This document shows, in pieces, positions 16,856 through 19,046 of a stretch of 64,000 bases of DNA. The DNA lies in the IMG/VR virus record IMGVR_UViG_2851976983_000001, positions 32,001 to 96,000 of that record; one strand, given 5' to 3'. How positions within the stretch are numbered: position 1 is the stretch's first letter; each line of letters begins with the position of its first letter. Both the position numbers and the translations under genes were made by a program. The notes beneath the pieces were generated by a model, which made no database searches, was not told the origin of the DNA, and saw only the letters and a list, made by a program, of their open reading frames with translations. The DNA is from a virus (taxonomy: Duplodnaviria; Heunggongvirae; Uroviricota; Caudoviricetes).

Positions 16856-17644
16856 TCACGGCAGTTTTGCTCTAATTTCGAGTAATTTTTGTGCCGTGAC
16901 GCTGATGTCATAAGCCAGATCTTGGGTTTGGTTAATGATTCCGTAAAAGCGCTCAACCTCTTCAGGATAAAAACGTCTGATATGGGGGATGTCGATATAA
17001 TCATAATACCCAAGCCCACCCGCGGAATATTCTCTGAAAAGCGCCCAAAAGTTGTTCACTTTCCCGACCAACTCCATACGGATTGTTTCTAAAACAACAT
17101 CATTGAAGCTGTAAAAGGGGTTATAGGCAATATTATCAAATGCGTAGAGTGGGTCGGTAATGTTGGTGCTTACTTTTGCCCGGAACTGTTCGCTCTTCAG
17201 CATTTGGAGGTAGTTATAATTAAAAATATCAGTAATAGCTTTTAGAACACCGATGTCTCTATCTGAGTAATTGTTCTGGCTCACCTGGTGCGTCATTTGA
17301 AGCAGTAAAGATTGCCGAGTTTCGGCCAGTTGCTTCCAGTTTTTCAATTGCTCAACAGAATAGATAGTGTGGTCAGAGTCAATGAGTGCGCCATGTGAAC
17401 GACACATCCATATACCGTTATCAATCGAGCTTCGCTGTTCTGGGGTCAAGCTAGGATCATATCTCGGCCCACCTGGCGCTGCTGCTGTAATATGGGCCGC
17501 AATACCATTATTAATCCTGCCGTTTGTATCACTGCTATCCGGGCCTACTGTTGTCTGGTTGCAGCCAAGAAAAGAGCATTTCCAGCCTACGCGTTCGGCC
17601 AGTGTTCGCTTCACCGATTGGGGAAAATCATCTCTGTTACTCAC
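16856..17644 (-). CDS. HNH endonuclease-domain protein with uncharacterised C-terminal domain
   Basis: 262 aa; N-terminal WKCSFLGCN ... AAHITAAAPGG ... NGIWMCRSHGALIDSD (Cys pairs plus H-N-H spacing). Confidence 0.6.
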   Translation of the reverse strand: MSNRDDFPQSVKRTLAERVGWKCSFLGCNQTTVGPDSSDTNGRINNGIAAHITAAAPGGPRYDPSLTPEQRSSIDNGIWMCRSHGALIDSDHTIYSVEQLKNWKQLAETRQSLLLQMTHQVSQNNYSDRDIGVLKAITDIFNYNYLQMLKSEQFRAKVSTNITDPLYAFDNIAYNPFYSFNDVVLETIRMELVGKVNNFWALFREYSAGGLGYYDYIDIPHIRRFYPEEVERFYGIINQTQDLAYDISVTAQKLLEIRAKLP

Positions 17645-17684
17645 GATTAACCTCGCTGTGTTTAAACAATCTTATGGTTATTTG

Positions 17685-18254
17685 TTAGTGGCGTTTGTCT
17701 TCTTCCAGACGCGCCGTTTTTAAGTGTTTGTCGGTAAAGGTAAGTAACGTTACGCCCTCATCTTTATTCATGAAACCGGCACCGTTTATCATCATGATCA
17801 GGCGCTCTTTGCCGCGGAATACCTCATAATACTTTCCCGCTGCACATGACATTGTCTTGGCGCACTCCAACCCATTCAAGGCTGTTTCATCAAATACCTG
17901 ATCTTTAGTGGCAACCGGCTTCCCGTATTCTTTCGTAAGCATTTCGTCGAGCTGCATGAAGGTATACTTGCCGACGTTGGTAGTCATGCTTGACTCAACT
18001 TTGCCATCAATCAATCCACCGGTGGTATGCGGTTCCTTACCTTCAGCCGCTGCTTTATCGAACAAAGCGAAGGCTTCGATGTTTGGGGTTCGTTTTTCAA
18101 AGTGGGTTTTGTACTGGCTCTCAAGGGAGTTTTTGTCCTGACCGATTAGTGTAATTTTATCGACTTCAGACTCGTTGCATCCCGTGAGTGTGAACGCGAT
18201 TATTAGAGAGGTGAGAATAGTGAAGTTGCGCTTTTTCATTGATGCTATCTCCAT
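17685..18254 (-). CDS. lipoprotein (signal peptide with lipobox LTGC)
   Basis: 189 aa; MKKRNFTILTSLIIAFTLTGC. Confidence 0.6.
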   Translation of the reverse strand: MEIASMKKRNFTILTSLIIAFTLTGCNESEVDKITLIGQDKNSLESQYKTHFEKRTPNIEAFALFDKAAAEGKEPHTTGGLIDGKVESSMTTNVGKYTFMQLDEMLTKEYGKPVATKDQVFDETALNGLECAKTMSCAAGKYYEVFRGKERLIMMINGAGFMNKDEGVTLLTFTDKHLKTARLEEDKRH

Positions 18255-18317
18255 GCAAACAGCTACGTTCCTACTACGGGTGGCACTTCAGATAAATACT
18301 TTAGACCTTGGCAGATA

Positions 18318-19046
18318 TTAACCGATGCTGTTTTGATACCTGCGAACTGCCGCATCCAATTCACTAACATATCGATTAAACTCACCCACAACATACTCCA
18401 AAAATTGATCGTCCATGAGGACACCGTTGAAGAAATTTACTGTTATACCGGCGTTTTCATTCTTTGCACGATTGATTGCGCGGATATCTCGCTTCTGTGT
18501 TTCTGACTTCTTTGCTTTTGATTTTAAAAGGTTATGATAGTTTTCGGCAACACCATCGTTGTGAGCCATGATATTTCTGATGGCCGCCAGATGAGCAATA
18601 TCCCTGATGCCTTTGCCTCCTATGGTTCCAGTAAGTCGCTTATGGCAATCTTCGACCGTTTTGAATCTTTTGTCTGTCACCTCGCCCGACAATCTATCCA
18701 TGACCTCAAGGCATTCAACCATGCGGTGTTCAAATAACCCGAACATCGTCAGAAATGCCGAACGACGAGTAAGTTGTGAAATCAAGTGCTTGTATTCCGA
18801 TTTGACTTCATCAGCATCGAATCCAGAACATGAACCGCAGGTAAAATACTGTACCGTATATAGATGAATTTTACCTTCATCGTCCTCATGCTCATCGTCA
18901 TACTCACCCTCCGAGACTGCGCCCGGAAGATCGGCATCACTAAGAGCGCGAGCAATGTTTACTTCAGCCTGTTCAGCTAGCATCTTCATGATTGTAATTG
19001 ATTTCGTGGCTCCCCAAAGTTGTAGATTAATAAATATCTTTGCCAT
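18318..19046 (-). CDS. hypothetical protein with HEPN-like R-x4-H motif
   Basis: 242 aa; AIRNIMAHN and IRDIAHL; acidic stretch EGEYDDEHEDDEG; assignment by motif only. Confidence 0.35.
   Translation of the reverse strand: MAKIFINLQLWGATKSITIMKMLAEQAEVNIARALSDADLPGAVSEGEYDDEHEDDEGKIHLYTVQYFTCGSCSGFDADEVKSEYKHLISQLTRRSAFLTMFGLFEHRMVECLEVMDRLSGEVTDKRFKTVEDCHKRLTGTIGGKGIRDIAHLAAIRNIMAHNDGVAENYHNLLKSKAKKSETQKRDIRAINRAKNENAGITVNFFNGVLMDDQFLEYVVGEFNRYVSELDAAVRRYQNSIG

Follow-up and report, generated by a model that had tools for sequence, protein, structure and literature searches.

The closest described counterparts of the locus treated here include two immune nucleases. HepS ("HEPN Solo", PDB 9oik) from the Salmonella prophage Gifsy-1 is a HEPN protein without a partner in a prophage accessory slot; it is an inactive tetramer at rest, and a phage tail-tip protein opens this tetramer so that the anticodon loops of tRNAs are cleaved (PMC13043305). 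The HNH domains of Cap5, the HNH-SAVED effector of the cyclic oligonucleotide-based antiphage signalling system (CBASS), degrade DNA as activated tetramers (PMC12141522, PMC8568899). Candidates for variants of both kinds lie close to each other in the window, meaning the whole stretch of 64,000 nucleotides analysed here (positions 32,001 to 96,000 of IMG/VR virus record IMGVR_UViG_2851976983_000001), which is an SSU5/pHCM2-type phage-plasmid of Escherichia coli, related to SSU5 and pHCM2. Three neighbouring genes of this element code for a 262 aa HNH protein, a lipoprotein and a 242 aa HEPN protein. The explanation favoured here, which is on balance probable, is that the interval between a tRNA-Asn gene and phoH is a cargo slot filled with three independent single-gene modules, two of them autonomous defence nucleases and the third a possible exclusion lipoprotein.

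The original prediction had described three consecutive minus-strand genes between PhoH and the tRNA region, and the corresponding open reading frames (ORFs) are all present:

16856-17644, minus strand: ORF of the 262 aa HNH protein (ORF scan; GTG start)
17685-18254, minus strand: lipoprotein ORF of 189 aa; the RefSeq ATG start at 18239 gives 184 aa (17685-18239)
18318-19046, minus strand: ORF of the 242 aa HEPN protein
15969-16757, minus strand: PhoH-like ATPase, boundary of the slot (Pfam PF02562, E=1.5e-73)
19794-19868, minus strand: tRNA-Asn(GTT), on the other flank and outside the slot

As full-length homologs exist for all three ORFs (E down to 1e-115 to 1e-165) and each ORF forms its own PHROG family (21516, 15156 and 21382, function not annotated), they can be regarded as real genes. 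Single-sequence searches of Pfam and NCBIfam gave no significant match for any of the three proteins, and both the HEPN and the HNH protein are annotated merely as hypothetical proteins. The 4.1 kb surrounding the trio are 100% identical to the E. coli plasmid p503829_100 (NZ_CP025870.1), with which the remaining window is colinear at an identity of at least 99.99%. The same contiguous trio of genes is found in plasmid pHCM2 of Salmonella Typhi CT18.

The same slot has a different content in other members of the lineage:

Window and pHCM2: 242 aa gene, lipoprotein gene and HNH gene
Citrobacter P3: 242 aa gene and lipoprotein gene
Klebsiella p2 type: 242 aa gene only
E. coli pToe3-1 and I3 p1: lipoprotein gene and HNH gene
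Kp1604 p2: an unrelated 304 aa ORF
SSU5: empty, with a CobT-like gene abutting the tRNA

The junctions between these relatives, as seen with blastn, delimit blocks of one gene, and two indel modules can be placed in the window:

18256-19612: module of the 242 aa gene, consisting of the gene and about 560 bp of upstream non-coding DNA; missing en bloc in pToe3-1 and I3 p1
16878-17678: module of the HNH gene alone; missing in Citrobacter P3

Of the HNH ORF, Citrobacter P3 has retained only the final 20 nt with the stop codon, joined 3 nt past the stop of the lipoprotein gene, and this remnant is therefore a deletion scar. A remnant of the lipoprotein leader is likewise kept in the Klebsiella locus. 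Plasmid records with the 242 aa, lipoprotein and HNH genes number 252, 105 and 82, respectively, of which 154, 0 and 5 are from Klebsiella. A pHCM2-like trio followed by stepwise loss would be the simplest history of the slot, and the piecemeal loss in relatives implies that each gene is individually dispensable. The distribution makes independent gain and loss of each of the three genes very probable. The one-cassette arrangement of the original prediction is contradicted by the sub-combinations and one-gene junctions described above, and neither nuclease has a conserved neighbour elsewhere. A 127 aa ORF located upstream in Klebsiella was considered as a lipoprotein homolog and proved unrelated on comparison; no Pfam or PADLOC family was found for the alternative slot cargo and the neighbouring ORFs.

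The 242 aa protein contains exactly one canonical R-x4-H motif, R157-NIMA-H162 (nt 18561-18578), while its remaining R..H pairs are of the R-x3-H and R-x7-H types. Where the original prediction spoke of several R-x4-H motifs (AIRNIMAHN), one can be kept and the plural has to be dropped. A single R-x4-H is close to the level expected by chance, which we estimate at about 0.3 per protein; this one is meaningful because R157, N158 and H162 are invariant in the family and near-invariant in distant relatives. An alignment of 39 family members shows the three residues to be invariant together with H152, E106 and "LTRRS" (L92, R94, R95 and S96). The family is small, as an exhaustive profile search over 1.84 billion representatives found only 111 relatives. 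In 71 of these distant relatives, with a mean identity of 16%, E106 and R157 are still invariant, and conservation is 90% or higher at R94, S96, N158 and H162.

Profile comparisons connect these proteins to named HEPN families. In PADLOC, the 242 aa protein itself weakly matches the RTasHEPN model (PDLC03820, E=9.3e-4, aa 145-236) and Cas13c, and RTasHEPN is also matched by 51 of the 71 distant relatives (best 8e-12). Nine of the 71 match HEPN_RiboL-PSP of Pfam (PF18735, best 1e-5), and there are sporadic matches to Cas13, CARF-HEPN and AbiD models. Two bridging proteins are recognised from both sides, P0282 with 5.9e-11 by the family profile and 4.8e-8 by RTasHEPN, and P0298 with 4.4e-8 and 7.5e-10. 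In a structural comparison, the top-ranked entries are HEPN toxins of toxin-antitoxin (TA) systems, 5yep and 7ae2. A Foldseek search of the PDB with the model of the protein gave no significant match, and the family profile retrieved only a spurious NLR match from the PDB sequences (E=1.3). Membership of the HEPN superfamily is established at the sequence level through motif and profiles, to which the fold adds corroboration at most. This agrees with the earlier HEPN claim, for which the invariant R-N-x3-H motif and the RTasHEPN links are decisive, and the profile searches led to no assignment of the proteins to non-nuclease families.

Outside the plasmid lineage, members of the 242 aa family are found as lone genes in a Pectobacterium conjugative element, a Pseudomonas mobile region and an Aeromonas integrase islet, as well as at moron positions in unrelated prophages, namely after a tail gene, in the gap between serine integrase and endolysin genes, and beside the small terminase gene. 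The neighbours differ in every context examined and none is conserved; neither an MNT nucleotidyltransferase nor another conserved protein partner occurs in these contexts, and no reverse transcriptase is annotated on the plasmid or in the examined neighbourhoods of the homologs. The 242 aa protein is accordingly best described as a solo HEPN protein and a predicted RNase. In being solo cargo of a temperate element that has no inhibitor gene, it is similar to HepS, but its family profile does not detect HepS and no sequence homology was found. RTasHEPN, of the defence-associated reverse transcriptase (DRT) class, and HEPN_RiboL-PSP are the closest named sequence families; however, the matches cover only the C-terminal half that bears the motif, and the scores of the window protein are below the curated cutoffs. 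The HEPN-MNT modules of TA types II and VII (SO_3166/SO_3165, 5yep; 7ae2) differ in having the MNT partner, and the 242 aa protein exceeds their toxins by about 100 aa and has an extension at its N-terminus.

The 262 aa protein can be divided into two parts:

aa 1-120, nt 17285-17644, minus strand: HNH domain of the Cap5 type (zinc ligands C23/C28 and C81/H84, catalytic H51, N76)
aa 122-262, nt 16859-17281, minus strand: C-terminal four-helix-bundle domain without a family

The first part, about 120 aa, is matched in PADLOC by PDC-M68A (1.6e-23), the CBASS endonuclease effector (1.1e-20), SAVED-HNH (3e-18) and the N-terminus of Shedu SduA (1.7e-16). Among the PDB sequences, it matches Cap5 (7rwk, 2.8e-7) and 9om4 ("HNH endonuclease", 2.5e-9). 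The alignments to Cap5 end at about residue 120-134 and the active site of the HNH domain is intact, while no SAVED match exists in the protein. The bundle domain resembles only generic or designed bundles in structure comparison, and profile searches with it against PDB and Pfam gave no match. An HNH protein with an unassigned C-terminal half had been described from the start, and the C-terminal 141 aa indeed remain without a family. The architecture is Cap5-like, an HNH domain with a regulatory domain behind it, but another domain has taken the place of SAVED.

Compared with Cap5 (PDB 7rwk, 7rwm and 8fm1), the HNH domain is of the same type, whereas the remaining 140 aa or so form a four-helix bundle and the cyclase is missing, as no CD-NTase is annotated on the plasmid or beside the HNH homologs examined. 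Lacking both a cognate CD-NTase and SAVED, the protein cannot be activated via a cyclic oligonucleotide from a cognate cyclase, and activation would have to occur via the bundle domain. The HNH effectors PDC-M68A, Shedu SduA and SPARHA (PMC12738770) are alike in that this module is reused across immune effectors, and fusions of the HNH module to other C-termini, including TIR, are present in the list of homologs. The likeness to PDC-M68 is limited to the N-terminal 120-128 aa (4-123 of the 253 positions in the profile). In the C-terminal half the two are unlike, and the 262 aa protein has no conserved partner.

Full-length members of the HNH family are also found as lone genes, in a Klebsiella P4-type integrase island, an integrative and conjugative element (ICE) of P. 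aeruginosa, a Burkholderia locus and a Vibrio integron, without a conserved neighbour in the contexts examined outside the plasmid lineage. In Vibrio parahaemolyticus (DAHRRB010000009.1, 5001-5789), the HNH/bundle homolog is a single-gene integron cassette in an array with ten attC-like repeats of about 130 nt and a Mrr_cat-like gene in the next cassette. In the ICE of P. aeruginosa (5702-6810 of the locus), the homolog begins 3 nt past a 98 aa XRE-family helix-turn-helix (HTH) gene on the same strand. This pairing is TA-like or regulator-effector-like and was not seen in the other contexts examined.

The lipoprotein call of the original prediction is borne out by the translation, from which a predicted lipoprotein signal peptide and lipobox can be read directly (MKKRNFTILTSLIIAFTLTG immediately before C; L-T-G-C). 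With Asn at +2, the protein is probably sorted to the outer membrane according to the +2 rule. No family was found in Pfam, NCBIfam or PADLOC, and phrog_15156 has no annotated function. The lipoprotein family comprises only 16 protein clusters, all from Enterobacteriaceae, and is confined to enterobacterial SSU5-like phage-plasmids. As the protein is exported and the nucleases have no signal peptides, it cannot be a direct partner of these cytoplasmic enzymes; a role as a surface or exclusion factor is possible. From general knowledge, it can be compared with Cor of phi80 and N15 and Llp of T5, which are likewise small exported lipoproteins and dispensable cargo of a temperate element. The window protein differs from them in having no sequence similarity to any family, and the element already has Cor elsewhere. 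This annotated phage-exclusion lipoprotein (about 33923-34159, minus strand) flanks the tail-fibre region.

A colicin-like operon, made up of an HNH toxin and a lysis lipoprotein, was considered and rejected. The HNH domain is of the Cap5 type and has no translocation or receptor domains, the two genes occur separately, and a lipoprotein of 184 aa is unlike the far smaller colicin lysis protein of about 45 aa.

For the two nucleases, a mechanism can be proposed in which each acts alone. By analogy with HepS, the HEPN protein would be inactive in the lysogen until an infection cue is received. Upon this cue, two R-N-xxx-H motifs would come together as a composite RNase site, and the activated protein may cleave tRNA or another essential RNA, leading to abortion of the infection. 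The 262 aa protein would be a Cap5-type HNH DNase in which the SAVED sensor has been swapped for the four-helix bundle. The bundle domain may relieve auto-inhibition or drive oligomerisation so that the HNH domain degrades DNA without a cyclic-nucleotide signal. The exported lipoprotein, probably in the outer membrane, may contribute to surface exclusion. What we infer are the nuclease activity with its substrates and triggers, and the defence phenotype, and for each nuclease the chance of a defence function is put at even or slightly better. The defence or exclusion role put forward by the original prediction can reasonably be drawn from a HEPN protein and an immune-type HNH protein, even though the single cassette that came with it does not stand. 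Mobile elements of many kinds carry both nuclease families as cargo.

Solo HEPN effectors and Cap5-type HNH effectors are known kinds of protein; what is new here are the variants and, in the case of the HNH protein, the swapped sensor. After HepS, the 242 aa protein represents the second lineage of solo HEPN proteins on temperate elements, unrelated to the first, and in the 262 aa protein the Cap5 nuclease module is no longer coupled to cyclic-nucleotide signalling. The tRNA-Asn/phoH interval can be described as a modular cargo hotspot. This matters as phage-plasmids of the pHCM2 type, which S. Typhi, E. coli, Klebsiella, Citrobacter and Enterobacter commonly carry, offer two testable defence candidates, which, if active, would affect the host range of phage therapy in clinical Enterobacteriaceae.

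Several points have to be set against this explanation. The genes of the trio are co-oriented in the window with spacers of 40-63 bp and no convincing terminator between them, and they may share a transcript in this element. The nearest named relative of the HEPN protein is associated with a reverse transcriptase that is absent here, so that regulation could differ from what is proposed. A literature search on the RefSeq protein accessions of the trio found no papers. Finally, the sole SSU5-like plasmid with a published anti-phage phenotype, which is also anti-transformation, is Kp1604 p2 of K. pneumoniae (NZ_CP085480.1; PMC8969562). It carries a type I restriction-modification system and a DUF262 gene and has none of the trio genes, and its phenotype was therefore rejected as support for the trio.

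Of the alternatives, the one that survives best, although it is unlikely, is that the nucleases serve the lytic programme of the phage-plasmid, through degradation of host DNA or RNA or scavenging of nucleotides, or anti-defence. The position of the genes would fit, as they belong to the arm for replication and nucleotide metabolism and are co-oriented with phoH and the genes for glutaredoxin, DNA ligase and the CobT-like protein. On the other hand, they are dispensable in the lineage and SSU5 is a functional phage without any of the three. Both families are moreover carried by non-phage elements, namely ICEs and integron cassettes, and the HNH subtype is the one that immune systems have recruited.

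A second alternative would make the HEPN protein the toxin of an addiction module, with either an unrecognised peptide or a small RNA (sRNA)-like element upstream of the gene as the antitoxin. The elements concerned are the following:

19338-19447, plus strand, opposite to all neighbouring genes: sRNA-like element inside the 242 aa module
19124-19156, minus strand: GC hairpin, terminator-like, a short distance 5' of the 242 aa gene; forms the second copy of a 33-nt direct repeat (repeat and terminator scan)
19608-19640: first copy of the 33-nt repeat, the terminator after tRNA-Asn

The sRNA-like element is preceded by a promoter-like site (19309-19337) and forms three hairpins, the last of which is a bidirectional intrinsic terminator. 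Its minimum free energy is -43.8 kcal/mol (z=-6.0), and in a comparison of 7 SSU5-like loci compensatory changes occur at 5 pairs. With a covariance model, it is found in all nine SSU5-like loci that have the 242 aa gene and enough upstream DNA, but neither in loci without this gene nor in the distant-homolog loci examined, and no Rfam family corresponds to it. The idea that it is a universal HEPN partner was dropped, as the model matches only SSU5-like loci. Phage-plasmids do need stable inheritance, and both the top structural matches and the constant co-occurrence of the structured RNA with the gene in the SSU5-like loci examined would suit an addiction module. Against this stand the missing protein partner, the absence of the RNA from the loci of distant homologs, and the properties of the RNA itself, whose location on the opposite strand, lack of repetition and separation from the gene by a terminator-like hairpin are unlike type I and III antitoxins. 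The clean loss of the gene from similar plasmids is also something that an addiction module should resist. Altogether, a TA module is quite improbable.

An extension of the favoured explanation would combine the sRNA-like element with both nucleases. The 242 aa protein would found a new solo-HEPN family of abortive infection, with its expression or activity in SSU5-like phage-plasmids controlled by the co-inherited, divergent sRNA-like element, and the HNH/bundle protein would be derived from Cap5 but signal-independent, its bundle domain directly sensing a phage component. This joint version is given only a slender chance. If true, it would mean that two new single-gene immune sensors are stacked in pHCM2 of S. 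Typhi, long regarded as "cryptic".

A third alternative, already raised by the original prediction, takes the HNH protein as a free-standing homing endonuclease inserted between the lipoprotein gene and phoH, with the other two genes unrelated to it. Phages often carry HNH homing endonucleases, a NUMOD4-HNH gene is annotated beside dnaE in Kp1604 p2, and it is exactly the HNH ORF that is present or absent between conserved neighbours. However, no DNA-binding module of the NUMOD, IENR1 or AP2 type was detected in the 262 aa protein with Pfam, its HNH domain is of the Cap5 or immune-effector type, and the 20-nt remnant in Citrobacter P3 reflects a deletion and not an empty homing site. The full-length architecture is also cargo of other elements, namely an ICE, an integrase island and an integron cassette, and its neighbours there are unrelated. 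Homing is very unlikely as an explanation.

The weakest alternative, an integrated three-gene defence or exclusion cassette coupled to tRNA-Asn, with an anticodon nuclease in the HEPN protein and the tRNA as its counter-measure or target, can draw on the adjoining, co-oriented and closely spaced genes of the window and pHCM2, on the existence of HEPN anticodon nucleases such as HepS and on a tRNA-Asn only 750 bp away, but it is largely refuted by the occurrence of every sub-combination in relatives, conflicts with an exported lipoprotein next to nucleases without signal peptides, and is left with hardly any probability. The distribution of the tRNA speaks against the coupling as well. It is present in four SSU5-like loci without the HEPN gene (SSU5, pToe3-1, I3 p1 and Kp1604 p2), whereas seven non-SSU5 loci with HEPN or HNH homologs had no tRNA within 5-6 kb of these genes, and the two terminator-like hairpins formed by the copies of the 33-nt repeat separate tRNA-Asn from the 242 aa gene. 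Judged by these sequences, the tRNA is a backbone feature of SSU5-like elements. The link to a tRNA counter-measure drawn by the original prediction is thereby lost, and adjacency to a phage tRNA is here no evidence of a pairing between anticodon nuclease and tRNA. The anticodon loop of the tRNA, CUGUUAA, appears to be the ordinary Asn loop of E. coli tRNA-Asn. An island integrated at the tRNA was also considered and rejected, since there is no direct repeat of the 3' end of tRNA-Asn in the window between 10.5 and 21 kb.

About 7 kb of the window (12969-19793), the slot included, are missing in phage SSU5, where the CobT-like gene abuts tRNA-Asn; this segment takes in, in order, a 70 aa ORF, genes for an HTH regulator, a tyrosine integrase, glutaredoxin and Gp49, then phoH and the trio. 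The interval between integrase and glutaredoxin is also variable in relatives, which have a YafO toxin and a 202 aa ORF, or other small ORFs, at this place, and it gives the impression of being another variable slot. Antisense to the 3' end of phoH (15973-16167, plus strand) there is an Rfam match to the Yersinia antisense sRNA Ysr251, which covers the full model length with 57.9 bits (E=3.7e-13), under the gathering score of 100.

In the tail region of the window (about 36284-48672), the RefSeq annotation of the identical plasmid shows tail genes interrupted by IS2, IS100 and an element of the IS3 family, and the host-specificity protein J, the tail-tip fibre and one tail protein are all marked as incomplete. 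This copy of the phage-plasmid is probably defective as a phage and kept as a plasmid.

Further structured elements surround the tRNA. Directly 3' of tRNA-Asn (19710-19792, minus strand), a perfect hairpin with 20-bp arms extends over 83 nt (z=-5.45); it begins 2 nt past the CCA end of the tRNA and is followed by the terminator at 19616-19635, and the homology to SSU5 stops within it at about 19751. This hairpin could serve as a signal for processing or could itself be a tRNA-linked RNA that is processed. Upstream of the tRNA, about 750 bp (19869-20616) are free of ORFs and contain two long inverted repeats at 20117-20135/20213-20231 and 20303-20324/20368-20389, for which Rfam returned sub-threshold matches only; they may be structured RNAs or tRNA remnants. 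The Klebsiella relatives have an additional tRNA-Ser(TGA) beside tRNA-Asn.

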